Shown: piece after piece, positions 1-57,461 of the stretch
How positions within the stretch are numbered: the first letter of the stretch is position 1
Layout of the letters: each line of letters begins with the position of its first letter
Source of the DNA: Chloroflexota bacterium
GTDB taxonomy: Bacteria > Chloroflexota > Anaerolineae > Aggregatilineales > Phototrophicaceae
Direction of reading: 5' to 3'
Length of the DNA stretch: 64,000 nt
Assembly: GCA_026709625.1 (NCBI GenBank)
Contig: JAPOSR010000044.1
Location: 186-64,185 of the forward strand
Made by a program: the position numbers and the translations under genes
Notes under the pieces: model-generated
Database searches by the model: none
The model's input: the letters and a program-made list of their open reading frames with translations, nothing else
What the model was told of the DNA's origin: nothing

Positions 1-1003
1 CCATGAGGGACAACGGTTTTTGCGTGGGGTAGCCGAGCCGTTCTTTGGCGCTTCCAGTTAACGGTTTTATGTCAGCCCAAACATCACCAGAAATTTTTCC
101 AGGCCTATCGTCAAGATAGTATTTGATGTATGGAAATCCATCTTGTTTCTTTGGCCAATGGATCATGCCGACTTCGTCGAATAGGTCGAGTTTCGCATGA
201 ATGCCCAATTTCACCCACTCATCTTCCGATGGCAAGAGGCTCTTAAGCCATGTGGGAAATCGCTTGTAGCCTGGCAATGCCCAAGCACGACCACTGCTCG
301 GGACTCTACCACGCCATGGTTGATATGCCTCAGTCCCGCCAGCTTTTGCACCTGTTAGCATATTTGCCCTATACACACCTCGTTCATCTTCATAACGGAA
401 GCTTTTCCGAATGTATTCCTCATCATAATCACTATGTACTCGATTCCAGCACCACTCATCACTTCTGCTGTACATTAATATCACGTCGTGAATAGCGGGC
501 CACTGCTTTGCGCCCAAATCGTGCGCGCCCGTGCGTTTCCAAACAACTTCGCTGCGAAAGTTGACGGGGCTAAAAATCGCATCCAGCACAATTTTCAGAT
601 AATGGCTGGCGGTCGGGTCGCAGTGCAGATACAAGCTGCCGGTCGCTTTCAAAACGCGGTGCAATTCCACCAGCCGCGCCGTCATCATGACCAAATACGC
701 CATCATCTGGTTGCGGTCGATGAGGTTCATCAGCGCTTCAATCGCCGTGCTGACCTTGGCCGGCGCGTCGATGATCAATTCGTGGTAGGTGGCTTCGGCG
801 GTTTCGCCCCAATGCCAGGTGTCTTCGAAGGCGGTGATCTGGGCTTGGCTGTCCGCGCCGCTCTCGGCTTTGAAGAGCACATTGTGGTCGCGGTTGCTGT
901 TGAAAGGCGGGTCGAGGTAAATCAGGTCGACGCAGGCATCGGGGAAGTATTCGCGGCTGCGCAGGATGTCGAGGTTGTCGCCATAATAGAGTCGGTTGGT
1001 CAT
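1..1003 (-). CDS. DNA methyltransferase, beta-class N6A/N4C type, 3' end cut by window edge
   Basis: Absent from the ORF track because it runs off the window. Hand translation from the ATG (cat at 1001-1003) gives MTNRLYYGDNLDILR..VDLIYLDPPFNSN..TGSLYLHCDPTASHYLK..ERLGYPTQKPLSLM. Paralogous to 36544-37782 and 55859-57347. Confidence 0.85.
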   Translation of the reverse strand, partial: MTNRLYYGDNLDILRSREYFPDACVDLIYLDPPFNSNRDHNVLFKAESGADSQAQITAFEDTWHWGETAEATYHELIIDAPAKVSTAIEALMNLIDRNQMMAYLVMMTARLVELHRVLKATGSLYLHCDPTASHYLKIVLDAIFSPVNFRSEVVWKRTGAHDLGAKQWPAIHDVILMYSRSDEWCWNRVHSDYDEEYIRKSFRYEDERGVYRANMLTGAKAGGTEAYQPWRGRVPSSGRAWALPGYKRFPTWLKSLLPSEDEWVKLGIHAKLDLFDEVGMIHWPKKQDGFPYIKYYLDDRPGKISGDVWADIKPLTGSAKERLGYPTQKPLSLM

Positions 1004-2510: not shown

Positions 2511-3644
2511 ATGCGCGTCGCGCTTGTCAGCGAAACTTTTCTGCCCAAGGTCGATGGCATCGTCAAGGTCGCTTGCCTGCTGCTGGATCATCTGTCTGCG
2601 CGCGGCATAGAGGCCATGGTGATCGCGCCGCGCTATGGTGATAATCAGCGCTACAAGCATGCGCCCGTCCACAGCCTGCCCAGCGTCGCGGTGCCGCTCT
2701 ATCCAGAAGCGCGACTCGGCTTTGCCACATCAGAGCTTTTTCGCGCGATTGCCGCCTTCCAACCGGATGTCGCGCATCTATTTCATCCAGCCATGACCGG
2801 CCTCCCGACTATGGCGATGCTGAAATGGCTAGGCGTGCCGATTGTGGCATCGTTCCACCTCGACTATGCGCGGCTGGCCAGCCAGTTTCAGGTGGGTGGC
2901 TTGGGCCTCAGTCTCGCGAGCCCGCTTATCGATCAAGTGACGCGGCGGGTCTTCAACTGGGCAGATGCGCGGCTCGCGCCCTCCCAGCTCGTGCAGGGGC
3001 AGATGCAGGCGCTGGGCATAGGCGAGGTCGGGCTGTGGCGGCGCGGGGTCGACGCAGAGGCATTTCACCCGCGTTTTTCTTCGCCAGCCATGCGCGCCGA
3101 GATGAGCCAAGGTTGCCCAGACGACACGTTGCTGGTCTATGTGGGGCGTTTGTCCGATGAAAAACAGTTGGAGCACATCCGCCCTGTCCTGGAGCAGACG
3201 CCCAATCTACGGCTGGCGCTGGTGGGCGACGGGCCGGCTCGGCAGCGGCTCGAACAAACCTTCGCCGGTCTGCCTGTAACATTCATGGGCTACCTGCGCG
3301 GAGACAGGCTGGCGAGCGCGTATGCCAGCGCCGATATCTTTGTGTTCCCTTCGCGGCTAGAGACATTCGGCTTGGTCGTGGTCGAGGCGATGGCGGCTGG
3401 TTTGCCCGTGGTGGCGGCGCGAGTCGGCGGCGTGACCGAAGTCGTCCGCGAAGGCAGCAATGGCTATACATTCGCAAGCGGCGATACCAGCGGGCTGGCG
3501 CAGGGCATCCACGCCATAGCAAAAGACCGCGAGACGCTGCGCTGGATGGGACGGCAGGCGCGCGCCTACGCCGAAACACAAAGCTGGAGCGCAAGTATGA
3601 ATGACTTAATAGCGGAGTACGCCAGACTCATCGTCAAGAACTAA
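2511..3644 (+). CDS. Glycosyltransferase family 4 (SqdX/PimA-like)
   Basis: MRVALVSETFLPKVDGIVKV.. N-terminus and C-terminal FVFPSRLETFGLVVVEAMAAGLPVVA (E-x7-E region). ATG at 2511 inside ORF 2325-3644. Confidence 0.85.
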   Translation: MRVALVSETFLPKVDGIVKVACLLLDHLSARGIEAMVIAPRYGDNQRYKHAPVHSLPSVAVPLYPEARLGFATSELFRAIAAFQPDVAHLFHPAMTGLPTMAMLKWLGVPIVASFHLDYARLASQFQVGGLGLSLASPLIDQVTRRVFNWADARLAPSQLVQGQMQALGIGEVGLWRRGVDAEAFHPRFSSPAMRAEMSQGCPDDTLLVYVGRLSDEKQLEHIRPVLEQTPNLRLALVGDGPARQRLEQTFAGLPVTFMGYLRGDRLASAYASADIFVFPSRLETFGLVVVEAMAAGLPVVAARVGGVTEVVREGSNGYTFASGDTSGLAQGIHAIAKDRETLRWMGRQARAYAETQSWSASMNDLIAEYARLIVKN

Positions 3645-3654
3645 GGCGCGCGGT

Positions 3655-4623
3655 TCATTCACGCAAGGCCCGCCCCGCCGCCGCGACCACCCGCGCATGA
3701 TGCTGCCCGTTGCTGATAATCATGCCGGCATTGGGCAGAGTCTCGCCGCGCGAAAAATCCAGCGCTTCGCCGTCCAGCCCCGTCGCCATGCCGCCAGCCG
3801 CCTGCACCAAGGCCACGCCAGCGGCATGATCCCAGACCTTGTGCGCATAACCGCTGCCCGCCCTCGGCAGGCGCATATACAAATCAGCATCGCCACAAGC
3901 CACCAAAGCATATTTCTCCATGCTGTCCAGCTCAACGATGCGCGCGCCGCCCAAACCCGCCAGCTCACGCGTCCGACCCATGCGCGATTTGCTGGCATGC
4001 GCCCGTTCATAGCTCTGCGCAACGACAAATTCATCGCCGCCGCGCCGCGCCGACACCGACACCCGCCGCCCAGCGCCGCCCGCCAATAACGCCCGCCAGG
4101 TCTCGCCAGCCTGGGTATAGAAGAGCGCGCCCTCGCCATCGTTATAGCCCGGCGCCGCCACGATGCCATCGGCAATCTCTCCATCGACCAGCAAGCCACA
4201 GGCGATTGCATAATGCCGCCGCGCCAAAAAACCTTTCGTGCCATCAATGGGGTCGATCACCCAGGTGCGCCGCGACCGCCGGCCCGCGCCGAAATCGAGC
4301 CAGGTCAAAAGCTGCGCCTCGCTCACTGCCTCGCCCAGCACAGCAGCCAGCAGCTGCAGCGCCTGCGCGCGTTTTTCGCTGGAGACCACCTGCCTGAATT
4401 GACGCCCCGATTCTTCGGCGATGACCGCGTCATCAGGATAGCGCTGCTGCAAAGCGCGGCAGATGATGGCCTGCGAGCCATAGTCGGCGATGGTCACCGG
4501 CTCGGTATGCGCGCCCGCCGTCTTTGCGCTGGCGCTCAGGTAGCGGTCTTGCACCAACTGGCAGAGTCTGGCGGCATCGCGCAGAGCCTCGTGCAATGCT
4601 TGCATCATTGTTCTTCCGATCAT
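3655..4623 (-). CDS. Inositol monophosphatase / 3'(2'),5'-bisphosphate nucleotidase (CysQ/HAL2-like) family
   Basis: Motifs VIAEESG, WVIDPIDGTKGF and KVWDHAAG are typical of the IMPase superfamily. Confidence 0.8.
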   Translation of the reverse strand: MIGRTMMQALHEALRDAARLCQLVQDRYLSASAKTAGAHTEPVTIADYGSQAIICRALQQRYPDDAVIAEESGRQFRQVVSSEKRAQALQLLAAVLGEAVSEAQLLTWLDFGAGRRSRRTWVIDPIDGTKGFLARRHYAIACGLLVDGEIADGIVAAPGYNDGEGALFYTQAGETWRALLAGGAGRRVSVSARRGGDEFVVAQSYERAHASKSRMGRTRELAGLGGARIVELDSMEKYALVACGDADLYMRLPRAGSGYAHKVWDHAAGVALVQAAGGMATGLDGEALDFSRGETLPNAGMIISNGQHHARVVAAAGRALRE

Positions 4624-4737
4624 TTGCCCGGCTGTTGGCGCTTTCTGGTCGGCATCATTTTCCCAGCGCCGGCTGCTGCTGTCCAGCCTAGATGATGGCG
4701 CAATCTCACAGCGCCCGGCGCGCGCTCACACACTGTA

Positions 4738-4766
4738 TTGACATGCTTATTTTCATATGGTGCAAT
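4738..4766 (+). promoter_or_regulatory. Sigma70-like promoter candidate
   Basis: TTGACA (4738-43), 17-nt spacer, TGCAAT (4761-66). About 45 nt upstream of the ATG at 4811. Confidence 0.4.
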
Positions 4767-4810
4767 GTCGTTTGCTTTATCGCTAAAAATCTAGTGAACG
4801 GGGATTTGCA

Positions 4811-5752
4811 ATGAGTCGGTTGATTCGTATGTTGCTTGTATTATTTCTGCTGGCTGGCTTGGTCATTGTCGCCGTGGCGCAAGACAGCCCAAAAAAACCG
4901 AAGAAAGTCCATTTCACCTGCGACAACAATGAGCTGAGGCTCGCCTGGAAAGCAGGCGAAGGCGCGAAGGGATTTATCTATGCCTTGGAACAAGCGGGCG
5001 CGCAGGTATTTAAGAAAATAACGAAGGCAACGGAAGTCTGGCTGGCAGCCGGCGAGCCAGGCGTGGAATATGTTGCCAAAGTCCGTTCAAAGCGGGGCGA
5101 CAAACGATCCAAGTGGGTCAAGCGGACAGTCATCTGCCCGTCCGCCCAAGTGGCGGCTGTCCCAACCGCGGCGCCGACCCAAGAAATCCCCCCGCCCGAG
5201 CCAAGATTCACCCGTATGGAATGCTCGCGCATATCGCGGCAAATCCATGTCGAGTGGCAACTGCAGCCGAGCAATGTGCTGTATCACCTAGAAATTTACG
5301 AGCTGCCGAATTCCCTGCCTATAGCCACTTGGACCTCCCACTGGGGCAACATGGCTGGCATCACCCCTGCGGGCAACGATGGCAAGACCTACCGCGCGCT
5401 GCTTACAGCCAGCGACGGCAACGTCAGATCACGCGCCGTCAGCACCGAGCACACCTGCGATTTTGGCACGTTGCGAGCGCCGAAACCACCGATAGATCTG
5501 TCACTGAGCTGCGGAGAGAACAGCGAGCTCATTTTATCGTGGCGAGCCAACCCGAGCGGCGATATCGTATCCTCCTTCAACTACAAGCTGTATGAAAACG
5601 GCCGGCAGTTTGACAATGGCAGTACGGCTGGCGCTGACAACCGGGGCATGTTCCCGCCGACTTGGGCATCTGGACGAACATATCGCGGGACAGTGCGCGC
5701 CTATAACGACGCTGGCTATAGCGATTGGGCCACAGTTGACCGGCGCTGCTAA
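4811..5752 (+). CDS. Secreted protein with three FN3-like modules, each bracketed by cysteines
   Basis: Signal peptide MSRLIRMLLVLFLLAGLVIVAVA. Three ~95-aa units have W and Y.(V/A)..(N/S) patterns; the last ends YRGTVRAYNDAGYSDWATV, a classic FN3 C-terminus. Confidence 0.6.
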   Translation: MSRLIRMLLVLFLLAGLVIVAVAQDSPKKPKKVHFTCDNNELRLAWKAGEGAKGFIYALEQAGAQVFKKITKATEVWLAAGEPGVEYVAKVRSKRGDKRSKWVKRTVICPSAQVAAVPTAAPTQEIPPPEPRFTRMECSRISRQIHVEWQLQPSNVLYHLEIYELPNSLPIATWTSHWGNMAGITPAGNDGKTYRALLTASDGNVRSRAVSTEHTCDFGTLRAPKPPIDLSLSCGENSELILSWRANPSGDIVSSFNYKLYENGRQFDNGSTAGADNRGMFPPTWASGRTYRGTVRAYNDAGYSDWATVDRRC

Positions 5753-36543: not shown

Positions 36544-37782
36544 TCATCGCAGCTGAAGCTTCACTCGCAAGTATTCCATACCGCGATTGCCCTTGATGCG
36601 ATTGCAAGAGCCGCACAGCAGCTGCAAGTTCTCGCTATGGTCGGTGCCGCCTTTCGAGCGCGGGATGATGTGGTCGACTTCCAAGCGCTGACTCTGAAAA
36701 TGCTCGCCGCAGCCTGCGCAGTTGCCCGCCTGCTCGCCATACAGCGCCTTTTTGTGGCTGGCGGGGCGCGGCAGCCCGCCCAGGTCGGTGCGCCGAGGCA
36801 TATCGGCGCGGTGGATGGGATTGGAAAACAAACCCAGTTCTTCGCGCAGGCGCAGTTTGGTCAGCTCGGTGGCTTTGCCCGCCACATCAATCCCCACCCA
36901 CTGCCGCCCCATGCCCTGCGCGGCGATGCAGGTCGTGGCGCAGCCGCAGAAGGGGTCAAGCACCAGAGCGCCTTCATCGCTGCCCGCTGCGATTAAGCGG
37001 CGATAAAGCGCGAGAGGCTTCTGTGTGGGGTAACCTGTGCGCTCCTTGTCCGAGTTATTCAGTTTTGGAATATCCCACACGTCGTCCAGGGGAATGCCAT
37101 AGCGCATCGCTTCATCCAAATACCTGCGTGCCCGCCGCCCGCCGCCGCCATCGGACAATACATACTCCCGTCCATCCTCATCGACGCGGACCTTCTGTTT
37201 TCGTACTTTGATATATTCCTCTTTGCTTTCCCAGGTTCTTGCTGGCGGATTAAATACTGCGCCATCTGCCTTGGAATAAAACAATATGACATCATGGCGG
37301 CGCTCGATATGGGCTTTCAGCTGTTTGTTCCAGCCGGAATAATGCCAGATAATCTCATTGCGAAAGTTGCCGCGTCCGAAAATCGCGTCCATGACCAGCT
37401 TCAAGTAGTGGCTCATGGTGGGGTCGCAATGCAGGAACAGGCTGCCGGTCGGCTTGAGGATGCGGCGCATCTCCAGCAGTCTGACCGCCATATAGACCAG
37501 GTAGGATTTGTCGCTGTCGGTCATAGCGGCGAGCAGAACGCGATGCAGCCCGGCGTGCTTGCTCTCGATGAGGTTGATCCATTCGGCATCGATGTCCGAC
37601 AGAGTCCAGGTATCTTTGAATTCAGCGCCGGCGGCTTGCGAGCCAATCGGGGCGGCGTAATTTGCGTTGGAATTGAAAGGGGGATCGAGGCAAATTAAAT
37701 CGACGCACTCGGAATTCGTGCCGCGCATGATGTCGAGGCAGTCGCCTGTCCACACCGTTTGATTTCGGAAGTTCGGCTTCAT
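36544..37782 (-). CDS. DNA methyltransferase (beta-class N6A/N4C) fused to a C-terminal HNH nuclease
   Basis: VDLICLDPPFNSN, TGSLFLHCDPTMSHYLK, ERTGYPTQKPLALYRRLI, VLDPFCGCATT. C-terminus reads CAGCGEHF..LEVDHIIPRSKGGTDHSENLQLLCGSCNRIKGN (CxxC..HH..N..CxxC). Confidence 0.9.
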   Translation of the reverse strand: MKPNFRNQTVWTGDCLDIMRGTNSECVDLICLDPPFNSNANYAAPIGSQAAGAEFKDTWTLSDIDAEWINLIESKHAGLHRVLLAAMTDSDKSYLVYMAVRLLEMRRILKPTGSLFLHCDPTMSHYLKLVMDAIFGRGNFRNEIIWHYSGWNKQLKAHIERRHDVILFYSKADGAVFNPPARTWESKEEYIKVRKQKVRVDEDGREYVLSDGGGGRRARRYLDEAMRYGIPLDDVWDIPKLNNSDKERTGYPTQKPLALYRRLIAAGSDEGALVLDPFCGCATTCIAAQGMGRQWVGIDVAGKATELTKLRLREELGLFSNPIHRADMPRRTDLGGLPRPASHKKALYGEQAGNCAGCGEHFQSQRLEVDHIIPRSKGGTDHSENLQLLCGSCNRIKGNRGMEYLRVKLQLR

Positions 37783-47682: not shown

Positions 47683-48570
47683 TCAGTCTCTAATAATACG
47701 AAACGGCGCGTTAACTGCTTCCCAAGCTCGAACCTCATCAAACAACGATGTCTGAACAAAGTAATCAAATTCGTAAGCTGTTCGCAGACTAGCCGACAGT
47801 GTTGTACTAGCAAGCGCTAGGCGAGTGGTATCCCTCAAGGGTACGCCAAATTCGCGCTCGAATAGAGATGGAAAAATTAGTGCAATGATATAAACAGCGT
47901 CATGTCCGTTACATAGCTTTATGCTGCCATTAGGAAATTTATTTCGAAGCGCCTTCACTTCTGCAATTAGCCGGTCACTCTGCAACTCTCGTATGTTTTC
48001 GCAAAGTCGCCTAGCTGCCCAGCTTCTGTCAAACTCCAGAGTCTCCACATCAATAACATCCTTGAGATTAAACTCCTTGAAGTTGATGCCATAATTGTGT
48101 TTAGCGTTGAGACAGCGAAAGAGTCCTATCTCCTCAGCCAATTTTAGAGCTTCATGTCTTAGTTTTTCTGCAAACGCATGTACTTCTTCAATCTCCACTT
48201 GTGTTAAATGATTTCGTAATATCTTCGCCAGTGCTGGCGAGTCAAGCAACATGATTTCACTATCTGGGCATGTATTATCGTATAATAAATTCTGTCTATC
48301 CAGCTCATCTGATCGGAGAATAAGATTATAGTCCGCATCCACAATTGCGGCCAAACCTCGAATATCGCGGAACATAGATGAATCGAGCAAAGATAACAGA
48401 TTCTGTTTTCCGTTTACTCGTTCCAATCTGCAATTGTTTTCAACTGTGAAATCCCACCATAGAGCTTCATCAGTACGACCTTCTACTAGAACAAATGCTA
48501 GCGCTTTGTTCCGCATTCGAGACATGAAGATCAGATTGAATAAGTAATGTGGAGTCTTTCTCGGACCCAT
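47683..48570 (-). CDS. DUF4435/TOPRIM-like protein, AriB-like partner of the upstream ATPase
   Basis: N-terminal ..ALAFVLVEGRTDEALWWDF.. then AAIVDADYN (acidic TOPRIM-type motifs). AT-rich. The Met at 48570 abuts the ATPase stop (48573). Confidence 0.65.
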   Translation of the reverse strand: MGPRKTPHYLFNLIFMSRMRNKALAFVLVEGRTDEALWWDFTVENNCRLERVNGKQNLLSLLDSSMFRDIRGLAAIVDADYNLILRSDELDRQNLLYDNTCPDSEIMLLDSPALAKILRNHLTQVEIEEVHAFAEKLRHEALKLAEEIGLFRCLNAKHNYGINFKEFNLKDVIDVETLEFDRSWAARRLCENIRELQSDRLIAEVKALRNKFPNGSIKLCNGHDAVYIIALIFPSLFEREFGVPLRDTTRLALASTTLSASLRTAYEFDYFVQTSLFDEVRAWEAVNAPFRIIRD

Positions 48571-48572
48571 TC

Positions 48573-49949
48573 CTAGCACACACCTTCTGGGTACCGAAGC
48601 CCTACTACCCACTCCCATTTGTCGTCGACCAACGTGGGCGAATGAGTAGCGATAAGGAGGTCGAAATGTCTAAATGCAATAACATCTCTTAGGTCGTCCA
48701 GGAATCTTTCCTGCCAATCGACGTGCAGCGAAAGTTCGGGCTCGTCAATCATTATTAGAGAATTATGCTCAACATGAAACAGCAGTTGATAGATCAGAAT
48801 TAGTTCATGCTGCTCTCCGGAGGATAAACTGGTCTTTGGTATCTCATTACCTTTGTTGTCCTTAAATATAAAACCCTTACGCTTGTCGATCTCAAGTGTC
48901 TTGCACATGAATCGATTATTGATGATGGCTATGAGAATTTCGAGTTGGCGGGATATTGCGTCGACCTTTGAGAGTTTCGCTTCTATGTCTTGCACATAGA
49001 TTGATAGTACATCTGTGAGATTATTCTGCGTAGTGTCGTCCAGCTTTGGAATCTCAGGAACATCCTTATCTTCAAATAATCCAAGCTTAATTAGCTTTGC
49101 CGTCTTCTTCTCAAGTTCGTCAAGTTTCTCCTGCAGATTATCTTGAGCAATTAGCTCTGTTCCATCTGATTCAATTAATCGTTTTGGAAAGCTACGATCA
49201 CGTATTTGCGATTCTTGTCCGTATTCGGCCATCGCGTTACCGATTTCTTTGGCAATTTCCTCAGAATATCTTACGACCGTTGCTTTTGGCGCTGACGAAG
49301 CTCGTCTCCTGCGCGATGACAGATAAGCAGAAAAGCCTAACGGTCGAGTGGGTTCGGGATCCTGAAGCCTTTGCGCCTGAATTAAACGAGTCCGGGTACT
49401 CCTCTTTATATCCTTCATCCACTTAGGTTCATTGTAGAGATATACCTGAAAGTCATATGCCGCTATGACTTCTTCAATGGTCAATACATCTCCGGTTAGG
49501 ATATTCTCCCATCTTGTACTTCCTATGGATGACAGCTCTGGCTTTGACTCTGCCAGTTCTCTGACGCGCGCCAATCCCTGGCGAGTGGGTTTGGGGTTGT
49601 AAGTTTGCTCATTTGAACCATTGCTATCGAAATATCGAAGCACCAGAGACTCTTCAATTGGATCACTGTCTCGATCTCCCTCTGCTGCATCCCTTGTTTC
49701 TAATTCGGTATAGTTTCCTTCAATACAAACTCGCTCCCCACTTGATAATTCAACGCTAAACGACCCAAAGGGTATGCTCAAGAACACTCCGTAATTTGAC
49801 GTAAACAAACCATTGATCATCTTCATCAGAACGGTCTTGCCGATTCCATTTGGTCCATGAATGATTGATATCCGAGAGTCCTGATTCAGTCGAATCTCAT
49901 GGTCAAACATGTCAAACAACTTCGTTACTGTAACACTACGGATGCGCAT
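48573..49949 (-). CDS. ABC/SMC-like AAA ATPase (AAA_15/AAA_21 type), AriA-like
   Basis: Walker A IHGPNGIGKT, ~280-aa helical insert, signature LSSGEQ, Walker B LIMIDEPELSLH, H-loop IATHSP. AT-rich. Confidence 0.8.
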   Translation of the reverse strand: MRIRSVTVTKLFDMFDHEIRLNQDSRISIIHGPNGIGKTVLMKMINGLFTSNYGVFLSIPFGSFSVELSSGERVCIEGNYTELETRDAAEGDRDSDPIEESLVLRYFDSNGSNEQTYNPKPTRQGLARVRELAESKPELSSIGSTRWENILTGDVLTIEEVIAAYDFQVYLYNEPKWMKDIKRSTRTRLIQAQRLQDPEPTRPLGFSAYLSSRRRRASSAPKATVVRYSEEIAKEIGNAMAEYGQESQIRDRSFPKRLIESDGTELIAQDNLQEKLDELEKKTAKLIKLGLFEDKDVPEIPKLDDTTQNNLTDVLSIYVQDIEAKLSKVDAISRQLEILIAIINNRFMCKTLEIDKRKGFIFKDNKGNEIPKTSLSSGEQHELILIYQLLFHVEHNSLIMIDEPELSLHVDWQERFLDDLRDVIAFRHFDLLIATHSPTLVDDKWEWVVGLRYPEGVC

Positions 49950-55807: not shown

Positions 55808-55849
55808 GCCCCCACCCCAAGCCCCTCCCCCAAGATGAGGAAGGGGCTT
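55808..55849 (-). repeat. Dispersed hairpin + G-tract repeat, copy C (inverted relative to copy D)
   Basis: gcccccaccccaagcccctcccccaagatgaggaaggggctt. Hand alignment to the reverse complement of 57411-57452 gives 38 of 42 identical positions. Confidence 0.75.
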
Positions 55850-55858
55850 ATTTGCGAT

Positions 55859-57347
55859 TCAAGCTGAGATTCTGCCGCGGCGTTTGCGCCCATACTGCGG
55901 AGGCAAATGAAGAGGCTTGTCCCTCAGTAAATCATCGACGCTATAGCCTTGAATCACTGGGTATTCATTGCCAAAACCACCATCCCAAGTCTCACGGCTG
56001 CGCTGGTTTTCAACCGTGCCCATCTGCTCCTTAAAACATACCATCACTCCCGCGACTGCCTCGACGCGGCGCACCGTCTCGCTCAAGGCTTTCACATCCT
56101 CCGCTCGCACATTCCCGCCCTTGACCTGCACCACGATCGATTCTTCATAGACGACGCCTTTGCGGACAACGGGCAGGATGATCTCACCATCAATCCCGCC
56201 ATCCGGACCCTTGTCGCCCGGCTGTTTGCGCAGGCCCATCTTGTTGACGCCGATGCGCCCGCAGACCCATTTTTCAAACTCGAAGGGGCTTTCACGCGCC
56301 AATTGCCTGGCTGTCCGATCGTTATAGGGCAGTCCGACAATGTCGATAGCCGACGCATGCACCCGCGCGGGATAATTGGAAAGGATGCGCTGCCGCATCA
56401 GCTCGGTCGAGAAACGCGAAATGTCAATGCCGATCCATTGGCGATTTAGTTGCTCAGCGGCGTGCACGGTCGTGCCGCAGCCACAGAAGGGGTCGAGCAC
56501 AATGTCGCCCTCATTGGATGAGGCGCGGATGATGCGCTCCAAAAGGGCAAGTGGCTTTTGCGTGGGATAGCCGAGCCGTTCTTTGGACACAGGAGAAAGG
56601 ATAGGAATGTACCACCAGTCACCAACTGCTATTTCTGCCGAAATAGCGCGCTTTATTGGTCTGCCCATATCGTCCTTCGCGGTCACAGTTTTCCCGAACG
56701 AGTCCTTTGCACTAACATACTGAGACGGATTAGGGTTATCGTTCGGCACCATGATAGGAATAAAATTCCATTCTTTCGTATTGGCATACCAGAGAATAAT
56801 GTCATGCAGGCGTGGCAACTGTCGCTTGCTCGCTGTCCATCTCTTATAGCACCACACTATTTCATTTCTGAAGTTCTGCTTTTCAAAAATCGCGTCCATT
56901 ACCACTTTCAAATAATGACTCGCAGTCGGGTCGCAATGCAGGTAAATGCTGCCCGTCGGCTTCAACACGCGCTTCATCGCCAGCAGGCGTTCCGACATAT
57001 TCAGCAGGTAAGATGCCAGGCTGTTGGTTCTTTTTCTCCTACCCCCCCCCGTACATGTGTTCTATACGCTGCGCCACCTCGACGATCATCGCCAGCGTCG
57101 GGCGCGGATCGGGCAGTTTCTTGAACTCCGCCAGTCTCGTATCATCATCGGCTGTCCATGTCCAGGTATCCACAAAGGCTTCGACAGGCTCATAGCCTTT
57201 GTCCTTGCCTTTGAATGGCAGGTTGTATTTGGCATTGGAATTGAACGGCGGGTCAAGGTAAATGAGGTCAACCGATTCGGGTTGGATGTAGTCGCGCAGG
57301 ATATTGAGGCAATCGCCTCGGTAGAGCTTGCGTAGCGGGTTTGACAT
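55859..57347 (-). pseudogene. DNA methyltransferase (beta-class) fused to an Mrr-like PD-(D/E)xK domain, split by a frameshift in a G9 run
   Basis: ORF 57039-57347 (..VDLIYLDPPFNSN..MYGGG*) and ORF 55859-56998 (..TGSIYLHCDPTASHYLK..ERLGYPTQKPL..VLDPFCGCGTT..FEFEKWV..GPDGGIDGEI..VVQVKGG). Removing one G restores a ~496-aa frame. Confidence 0.85.
57042..57050. repeat. C9 (G9 on the coding strand) homopolymer at the frameshift site
   Basis: Line 57041 reads a ccccccccc g. The reading frames of the two ORFs differ by exactly one nucleotide across it. Confidence 0.9.
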
Positions 57348-57410
57348 TTTTGTTTTCCCTTTTTTAGAAGTTCAATGAAGGGCGAGTCAACGCTTCGCCC
57401 CTACTTCTAT

Positions 57411-57461
57411 AAGCCCCTCCCTCATTTTGGGAGAGGGGTTTGGGGTGGGGGCTTGCCTCAC
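57411..57461 (+). repeat. Dispersed hairpin + G-tract repeat, copy D
   Basis: aagCCCCTCCCTCAttttGGGAGAGGGGtttGGGGTGGGGGcttgcctcac. Lies 64 nt upstream of the methyltransferase ATG. Its tail overlaps the FAH stop codon. Confidence 0.75.

Follow-up and report, generated by a model that had tools for sequence, protein, structure and literature searches.

Phase variation driven by homopolymers in restriction-modification genes is regarded as characteristic of pathogens adapted to a host (Campylobacter, Helicobacter, Neisseria, Haemophilus). The phasevarions of Haemophilus, Neisseria, Helicobacter and Moraxella, known from the work of Srikhanta, Atack and Jennings, are built on phase-variable Type III mod genes. 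These mod phasevarions have been reviewed (PMC13076061). Another well-described case is Cj0031c of Campylobacter jejuni NCTC11168, a phase-variable Type IIG enzyme with an intragenic poly-G tract, in which switching between ON and OFF alters both methylation at specific sites and the restriction of phages (Anjum et al. 2016, PMC4889913). For Helicobacter pylori, two further reports describe phase-variable Type II methyltransferases together with “domain movement” of their recognition domains (Furuta et al. 2014, PMC3983042; PMC4209511). Here, we analyzed a stretch of 64,000 nucleotides (nt) from a Chloroflexota bacterium of the Phototrophicaceae (GenBank assembly GCA_026709625.1, contig JAPOSR010000044.1, positions 186 to 64,185 of the forward strand), hereafter referred to in its entirety as the window. 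One of its genes, encoding a DNA methyltransferase fused to an Mrr-like nuclease domain, is split in two by a run of nine G. We propose that this gene encodes a slipped-strand phase-variable, single-chain restriction-modification-like enzyme, captured here in its OFF state. Based on the sequence comparisons presented below, we estimate the probability of this reading at roughly 0.7.

The run appears as C9 on the forward strand (CCCCCCCCC, 57042-57050), corresponding to G9 on the coding (reverse) strand, where the context is ...ATG TAC GGG GGG GGG TAG GAG AAA AAG..., with the nine G at 57050-57042. It is the longest homopolymer of the window. The N-terminal open reading frame (ORF) of 102 amino acids, which ends at the stop codon adjoining the tract, contains motif IV (DPPF) as its sole catalytic motif, and the C-terminal ORF of 379 amino acids lies one nucleotide out of its frame. 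The continuing reading frame really begins at 57040 (AGG, encoding R103), upstream of the start that was called mechanically for the 379-residue ORF. A preliminary description of the locus had given these ORF ends and the one-nucleotide offset around the tract, and we confirmed both the coordinates and the translations. That description also held that eight G would restore a read-through enzyme of about 496 residues. Indeed, editing the tract to G8 in silico yielded a protein of 495 amino acids, reading ...MYGGGRRKRTNSLASYLLNMSERLLAMKRVLKPTGSIYLHCD... / ...MYGGGRRKRTNSLASYLLNMSERLL... across the junction, which aligns with the paralog at window 1-1003 just as had been stated. Editing to G11 gave 496 amino acids, and both G9 and G10 led to an early stop. 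The tract edit alone was sufficient to repair the gene, with no second lesion anywhere in its 1.49 kb, and full-length intact homologs of the repaired gene are 492-501 amino acids long.

The repaired protein matched two Pfam profiles, N6_N4_Mtase (PF01555; E=4.5e-48; 164.5 bits, cut-off 26.7) and Mrr_cat (PF04471; E=1e-5; 26.1 bits, cut-off 21). Its layout is that of beta-class N6/N4 DNA methyltransferases, with an N-terminal motif IV, a C-terminal motif I and a variable region between them. Residues D32, P34 and F35 of motif IV were invariant in a homolog alignment (A1). The middle region is hypervariable compared with the rest of the gene (pN, the nonsynonymous divergence, ~0.5 versus ~0.07), and even the closest orthologs have an unrelated sequence there. 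The nearest solved relatives are M.RsrI (1EG2; E=1e-16), M.MboIIA (1G60) and CcrM (6PBD). Similarly, PADLOC returned MTase_II (E=3e-71), a label that goes no further than “Type II methyltransferase”, and no NCBIfam model matched the repaired protein over its cut-offs. In the Mrr-like domain, where the profile score exceeds its cut-off and cleavage is a prediction, the acidic and QxK residues D382, D386, Q407 and K409 were invariant in 20 homologs. The best explanation of this arrangement is a single-chain beta-class DNA methyltransferase fused to a putative C-terminal Mrr-like PD-(D/E)xK nuclease, with the motif DPPF indicating that methylation is probably of the N6-adenine type. From the invariance of the four nuclease residues and the presence of a methyltransferase-HNH paralog in the same window, we infer that members of the family are probably restriction-modification-like enzymes in a single chain, and less likely orphan methyltransferases with a regulatory role. 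With the Mrr-like nuclease fused to it, a purely regulatory role of the methyltransferase would be no more likely than a phase-variable restriction-modification enzyme. The term phasevarion, used in the preliminary description, would further presuppose a regulon under the control of methylation.

To place the tract within the protein, we used an AlphaFold model of modest quality (mean pLDDT 67), solely for this purpose. Residues 100-106, which the tract encodes, lie in a loop modelled at low confidence that joins helix 82-98 to helix 110-127, and the alignment shows that homologs carry indels at this loop. In-frame changes of tract length (GGG, GGGG, GGGGG) should therefore be tolerated.

According to the mechanism that we propose, the tract would gain or lose G during replication through slipped-strand mispairing, producing heritable ON and OFF states that are presumably reversible within a population. 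Alleles with G8 or G11 would be ON and produce the enzyme of 495 or 496 amino acids. In G9 alleles translation would halt at the TAG directly after the tract, and the window would have caught the gene in this OFF state. Since the tract is located after motif IV and before the recognition region, motif I and the nuclease domain, the OFF state would abolish methylation and any nuclease activity together; motif I, for example, is downstream of the frameshift and would thus be lost. The expected pay-off would be population-level heterogeneity in restriction or methylation toward phages and foreign DNA, possibly with epigenetic effects.

The comparison with related loci (labelled L) provides the main evidence for this switch. 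In syntenic orthologs, a poly-G tract is retained at precisely this position, with differing length and frame state (Table 1). The gene order around them is SDR - FAA hydrolase - methyltransferase - MR_MLE or ADH, and the proteins encoded on either side are 73-93% identical. The tract length in related strains had been named in the preliminary description as a check on the switch, and it does vary at the same codon position, with both frame states represented. Three of these loci, L097, L011 and L098, belong to one species, as judged by their ~98% DNA identity, yet they have G13, G16 and, in L098, a tract of G17 or more, long enough to break the Illumina scaffold into Ns. Moreover, a ~230-nt replacement in the middle (recognition) region distinguishes L097 (~2363-2592) from L011 and L098, which indicates recognition-domain swapping besides the change in tract length. 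Among the proteins sharing 90% identity or more with the N-terminal fragment were additional truncated forms (103 and 115 amino acids) and intact enzymes, and the poly-G tract is present at this site in their DNA too.

The same orthologs allowed us to evaluate whether the gene is a fixed pseudogene, killed by a one-off slippage and decaying with no return to the ON state. Such decay would agree with the OFF state of the window strain in every available assembly and with the OFF state of about half of the tract-bearing relatives, including four copies borne by an insertion sequence (IS) in one genome. In addition, at least two other methyltransferase paralogs are present in the window alone, and a loss could thus be tolerated. 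However, the gene carries no lesion beyond the tract, and on either side of the tract the ratio of nonsynonymous to synonymous substitution rates (dN/dS) is 0.03-0.10, even for the OFF-OFF pair formed by the window gene and L003. When 88 loci were examined using tblastn, the frameshift junctions all fell in the tract (residues 99-109 of the query), and each OFF allele was a single slip (+1 or -1) away from ON. Synonymous divergence among the syntenic orthologs is near saturation (dS 0.7-2.9), and the tract is kept across it, the interrupted version in L012 being the exception. The Gly codons outside the tract are mostly GGC in these genes, so codon preference cannot account for the tract. Its retention at near-saturated synonymous divergence, together with this preference for GGC elsewhere, therefore argues that it is maintained against mutational erosion. 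Judging from these substitution patterns, the OFF alleles are not old pseudogenes, and we regard fixed inactivation as quite improbable.

To determine how widespread such tracts are, we examined 80 loci obtained by a one-genome-per-species scan based on protein similarity, without reference to the tract. Nearly all of the 80 came from metagenome-assembled genomes (MAGs) labelled Phototrophicaceae, Aggregatilineales, Anaerolineae, Dehalococcoidia or Caldilineaceae, a few came from other phyla, and there were often several family copies per genome. Runs of at least eight G or C occurred 25 times within the genes and the 300 nt upstream of them (139 kb), compared with 4 times in 552 kb of flanking sequence, an enrichment of ~25-fold (Fisher p=4e-14). 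At least one such run was present in 20 of the 80 loci, and in 13 it was located at the loop site. The same loop also bears poly-G in paralog clades that are less closely related (50-56% identity), from MAGs of the Phototrophicaceae, Aggregatilineales and Dehalococcoidia, and the length of the loop tract ranges from G8 to G17 over the family. The toggling of the frame by tract length held in silico for 17 related loci as well. In contrast, the loop site was free of a tract in all 80 homologs from prophages or viruses that share this architecture (35-45% identity). A scan of JGI metagenomes for close relatives returned just 8 distant loci and added nothing. As a separate observation, the closest viral-contig homolog (L099, 45% identity) has an in-frame G9 elsewhere, at 1968-1976, in a conserved WCYSGGG motif.

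One Aggregatilineales MAG (CAXXTM01) carries four copies of a 2,684-nt repeat (L081-L084, ~2961-5646 each), in which an IS1595-like transposase ORF (311 amino acids) overlaps a methyltransferase-Mrr gene at its start. The tract, with G8, G9, G9 and G8, is the sole difference among the copies and thus a direct case of length variation. This arrangement suggests that the methyltransferase may travel as IS cargo.

Since homopolymers are a classic site of indel errors, we considered whether the true tract is G8 (or G11), the gene intact and the G9 a consensus artefact. The same split gene with G9 was found in two more public assemblies (L001 and L002; SAMN13943198 and SAMEA7723690), as ENA contigs of 89.5 kb and 27.9 kb that match the window at 100% identity along 7 kb, and in the protein collection the fragments of 102 and 379 amino acids were present on several contigs. 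The two contigs are perhaps not fully independent data, and the longer tracts of the relatives L010, L098 and L039 do break Illumina scaffolds into Ns. Nevertheless, G9 recurs in three assemblies that differ in contig size, and out-of-frame tracts occur in samples and technologies independent of them (L003 and L004 from two assemblies, L005, L076, L081-L084 and L087). We also inspected the window ORFs around homopolymers of 6-8 nt and found no other gene broken at one. Runs of A7, C7 and C6 lie within long ORFs that are intact and retain their full set of domains, and the remaining long runs fall between genes. We thus rejected pervasive assembly frameshifts in the window and, because these homopolymer-bearing ORFs are intact, saw no sign of a systematic homopolymer error. 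Taken together, an artefact at this one site is unlikely, and even if it were real, the conserved tract of G8-17 would still be a hypermutable site.

In the Illumina-based scaffolds, long poly-G tracts inside these genes or beside them give way to Ns and garbled G-rich sequence at L010 ~4298-4350, L098 2340-2460 and L039 3780-3985. Scaffold breaks at long poly-G may systematically fragment such loci in short-read MAGs.

Another explanation would leave the G9 allele functional, with the full-length protein made through a prfB-like +1 ribosomal frameshift at GGG-UAG or through slippage of RNA polymerase. The layout is indeed similar to that of prfB, combining a slippery codon, a stop codon and a G-rich Shine-Dalgarno-like run upstream, and TAG or TAA follows the tract in most clade members. 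By our reasoning, a +1 shift of tRNA-Gly from GGG (57044-57042) to GGU (57043-57041) would frame AGG at 57040 and generate the exact G8 product. However, the orthologs L006, L007, L011 and L097 are in frame, and L003, L005, L082 and L087 need the opposite (-1) shift; the tract lengths are therefore better described as random slippage states than as a programmed site. We thus rejected a programmed +1 frameshift, which would rescue the window allele but whose configuration is not conserved among the orthologs and OFF alleles. As for the polymerase, long homopolymers are established sites of transcriptional slippage, which is nonetheless best documented for A/T runs. Leaky slippage on the G run is possible and could release some product from any allele, yet it leaves the length variation at the DNA level unexplained. 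Overall, we consider recoding a very remote explanation of the split gene.

Several observations weigh against a phase switch at this locus. A single G9 in 64 kb is, if taken alone, within chance expectation: at the 59% GC of the window, at least one G9 or C9 appeared in 21 of 100 dinucleotide shuffles, and the significance of the tract consequently derives solely from the comparative data. Every available assembly of the window strain has G9, with no length difference among them, and a collection of 5.8 billion proteins contained no G8 full-length form of the exact window protein. The four IS-borne copies are all OFF, which is also compatible with silencing or decay of the copies. Furthermore, Illumina scaffolds break at the tract in two relatives (L010 and L098), and since lengths of 13 or more may be wrong by a single G, whether assembled from long reads or from Illumina data, some of the ON/OFF calls in relatives are uncertain. 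Set against these points are the hallmarks of a contingency locus: a simple sequence repeat inside the ORF (G9 here, G8-G17 in relatives), a repeat length that toggles between a full-length and a truncated product (in silico), and lengths that differ among close strains or copies (L097, L011 and L098; L081-L084; L022 versus L087). The preliminary description had favored a slippage switch over decay or assembly error, and this preference is supported by the conservation of the tract, the confinement of frameshifts to it, the purifying selection on the gene and the unbroken state of the other window genes.

Beyond the loop, homopolymers were observed at two additional positions in the family (Table 1). 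Poly-C at the ORF 5′ end was found in L071, L072 and L086, which come from MAGs labelled Spirochaetia, Thermodesulfobacteriota and Dehalococcoidia. These tracts lie between the only plausible ATG, the start codons being inferred, and the conserved N-terminus, apparently out of frame. In L026, L042 and L053, poly-C precedes the start codon by ~100-140 nt in a conserved C(n)GAAAAT context and could represent a promoter-type repeat switch. We tentatively raise a broader reading, to which we would give slightly less than an even chance, namely that the window gene is one instance of a contingency system spanning the whole family. Methyltransferase-nuclease fusions would then occur in many copies per genome among bacteria living with sponges, in several phyla (classes of Chloroflexota and, it appears, MAGs of Spirochaetia and Thermodesulfobacteriota), and G/C homopolymers would have been gained in them at three or more positions (the loop between helices, the ORF 5′ end and ~100-140 nt upstream). 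If this were the case, each cell line would express a random subset of restriction-modification specificities, and recognition-domain swapping and IS-mediated copying would diversify the expressed subset further, giving an uncultured marine symbiosis an immunity that is combinatorial at the level of the population, together with epigenetic heterogeneity.

Two paralogs of the split gene are located in the same window, both on the reverse strand. The one at 1-1003 is 46% identical over its N-terminal part and runs off the window start. The other, at 36544-37782 (412 amino acids, 41% identical to the split gene), combines an N6_N4 methyltransferase with a C-terminal HNH endonuclease and lacks a homopolymer tract. 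A single genome thus joins different nuclease domains to this methyltransferase family. The immediate neighbors of the split gene are FAA hydrolase, SDR and MR_MLE enzymes, with no res gene among them, and RecD2, encoded 2 kb away on the opposite strand, is a helicase of the housekeeping type. The gene is bracketed by a 44-nt inverted repeat, each arm of which holds its own small hairpin. We examined whether these arms are the terminal inverted repeats of a mobile cassette and rejected this idea, as copies of the repeat occur at unrelated sites in related genomes (L011 7603 and 8661, L097 5189, L045 2907, L006 1678) and the gene is syntenic across species; we therefore regard the repeat as a dispersed element similar to repetitive extragenic palindromes (REP-like) rather than gene-specific.

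Two further regions of the window are of separate interest. A low-GC island at 47683-49949 on the reverse strand (GC 0.43; whole window, 0.59) contains the gene of an AAA_21/AAA_15 ATPase (458 amino acids) and, after it, that of a DUF4435 protein (311 amino acids), a pair that resembles, by analogy, the PARIS (AriA/AriB) anti-phage system. At 4811-5752 on the forward strand, an ORF of 313 amino acids has weak fibronectin type III and tissue-factor-like matches. Eukaryote-like domains such as fibronectin type III are often reported in sponge symbionts.

Table 1. Positions of the split gene's features in the window, followed by repeat tracts in related loci (positions of the latter are those of the locus named)
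Feature	Positions	Strand	Description
Whole methyltransferase-Mrr gene	55859..57347	-	1,489 nt with G9; 495 aa (amino acids) read with G8
Poly-G tract, proposed slippage site	57042..57050	-	G9 = OFF; G8 or G11 = ON
N-terminal ORF of OFF allele	57039..57347	-	102 aa, ...EHMYGGG, TAG at 57041-57039
C-terminal ORF as mechanically called	55859..56998	-	379 aa, starts at internal ATG
N6_N4_Mtase domain, broken by tract	56411..57272	-	PF01555, aa 26-312
Motif IV, DPPF	57243..57254	-	aa 32-35; catalytic motif of beta-class N6/N4 DNA methyltransferases, read from sequence
Hypervariable middle region, presumed target-recognition domain	56582..56851	-	aa ~166-255; from alignment and pN
Motif I, FCGCGTT	56468..56488	-	aa 287-293; S-adenosylmethionine (AdoMet)-binding, F287-T293 invariant in A1
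Mrr_cat (PD-(D/E)xK-type) nuclease-like domain	56036..56296	-	PF04471, aa 351-437
Upstream arm of 44-nt inverted repeat	57409..57452	.	brackets split gene
Downstream arm of 44-nt inverted repeat	55808..55851	.	91% complementary to upstream arm
Tract of L003/L004 (syntenic)			G12, OFF; ON lengths G10/G13
Tract of L005 (syntenic)			G9, OFF; ON lengths G7/G10
Tract of L006 (syntenic)			G8, ON
Tract of L007/L008/L009 (syntenic)			G9, ON
Tract of L097 (syntenic)			G13, ON
Tract of L011 (syntenic)			G16, ON
Tract of L098 and L010 (syntenic)			16 or more; Illumina scaffolds broken into Ns there
Tract of L012 (syntenic)			interrupted version GGAGGGAGGGAG
Tract of L022 (distant clade)			G10, ON
Tract of L087 (distant clade, syntenic with L022)			G9, OFF
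Tract of L040 (distant clade)			G10, ON
Tract of L054 (distant clade)			G17, ON
Tract of L050 (distant clade)			G17, ON
Tract of L076 (distant clade)			G16, OFF
Poly-C at ORF 5′ end	L071 2082-2090; L072 3981-3993; L086 3978-3988		C9; C13; C11
Upstream poly-C	L026 3896-3910; L042 3858-3867; L053 3877-3888		C15; C10; C12

Our literature search in open-access full text found no phase-variable methyltransferase described in Chloroflexota or in sponge symbionts, in agreement with the preliminary description, which knew of no Chloroflexota precedent. Papers on sponge microbiomes report just a general enrichment of restriction-modification genes (PMC9531527). The mechanism itself is well known, and the enzyme family, the phylum and the habitat appear to be undescribed for it. 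If the switch is real, uncultured Chloroflexota and further symbionts of sponges share a strategy known from pathogens, with a different enzyme architecture and many copies per genome. It would explain apparent “pseudogenes” and scaffold breaks in symbiont MAGs, it would predict methylation motifs confined to sub-populations, and it would provide a concrete handle on defense variation in dense, phage-rich holobiont communities.

Compared with described systems, the window enzyme belongs to the fold family of M.RsrI, M.MboIIA and CcrM and has its motifs in the same order (IV - recognition domain - I). Unlike it, these three stand alone, without a nuclease domain or a repeat tract. Its C-terminal Mrr_cat domain, with the residues D...D...QxK, matches that of Mrr, the Type IV modification-dependent restriction endonuclease family (PF04471), but here the domain is fused to a methyltransferase, and any cleavage by it, of modified or of unmodified DNA, is a prediction. 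With the Type III mod genes, the locus has in common a beta-class N6-adenine methyltransferase, a central variable recognition domain, a repeat within the ORF, ON and OFF alleles among strains and the shuffling of recognition-domain alleles. In contrast, Type III Mod proteins work with a separate Res subunit, their repeats are mostly tetra- or pentanucleotides, and their regulon has been shown experimentally. The split gene is not a member of Type III (Mod/Res), since its neighbors are FAA hydrolase, SDR and MR_MLE genes and no res is adjacent.

The methyltransferases of H. pylori are likewise encoded by many paralogs per genome, have homopolymeric G/C tracts and change specificity by replacement of the recognition domain between near-identical alleles, as seen here in L097 versus L011 and L098. 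They belong to another phylum and niche, and they are not known to be fused to Mrr-like or HNH nuclease domains. A close parallel is Cj0031c, in which a single gene likewise encodes both nuclease and methyltransferase and an intragenic poly-G tract switches the whole polypeptide, as we propose for the window gene. Cj0031 is an MmeI-like Type IIG enzyme of an Epsilonproteobacterial pathogen, with an N-terminal nuclease, a gamma-class methyltransferase and ~1,200 amino acids, whereas the window enzyme, known here from its sequence, is a beta-class protein of 495 amino acids with a C-terminal Mrr_cat domain, from an uncultured Chloroflexota symbiont of the sponge type. The reversed domain order, the methyltransferase class and the size (495 amino acids compared with about 900-1,300) set it apart from the Type IIG (MmeI/Cj0031-like) family. 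By analogy, however, it may work like a Type IIG enzyme.

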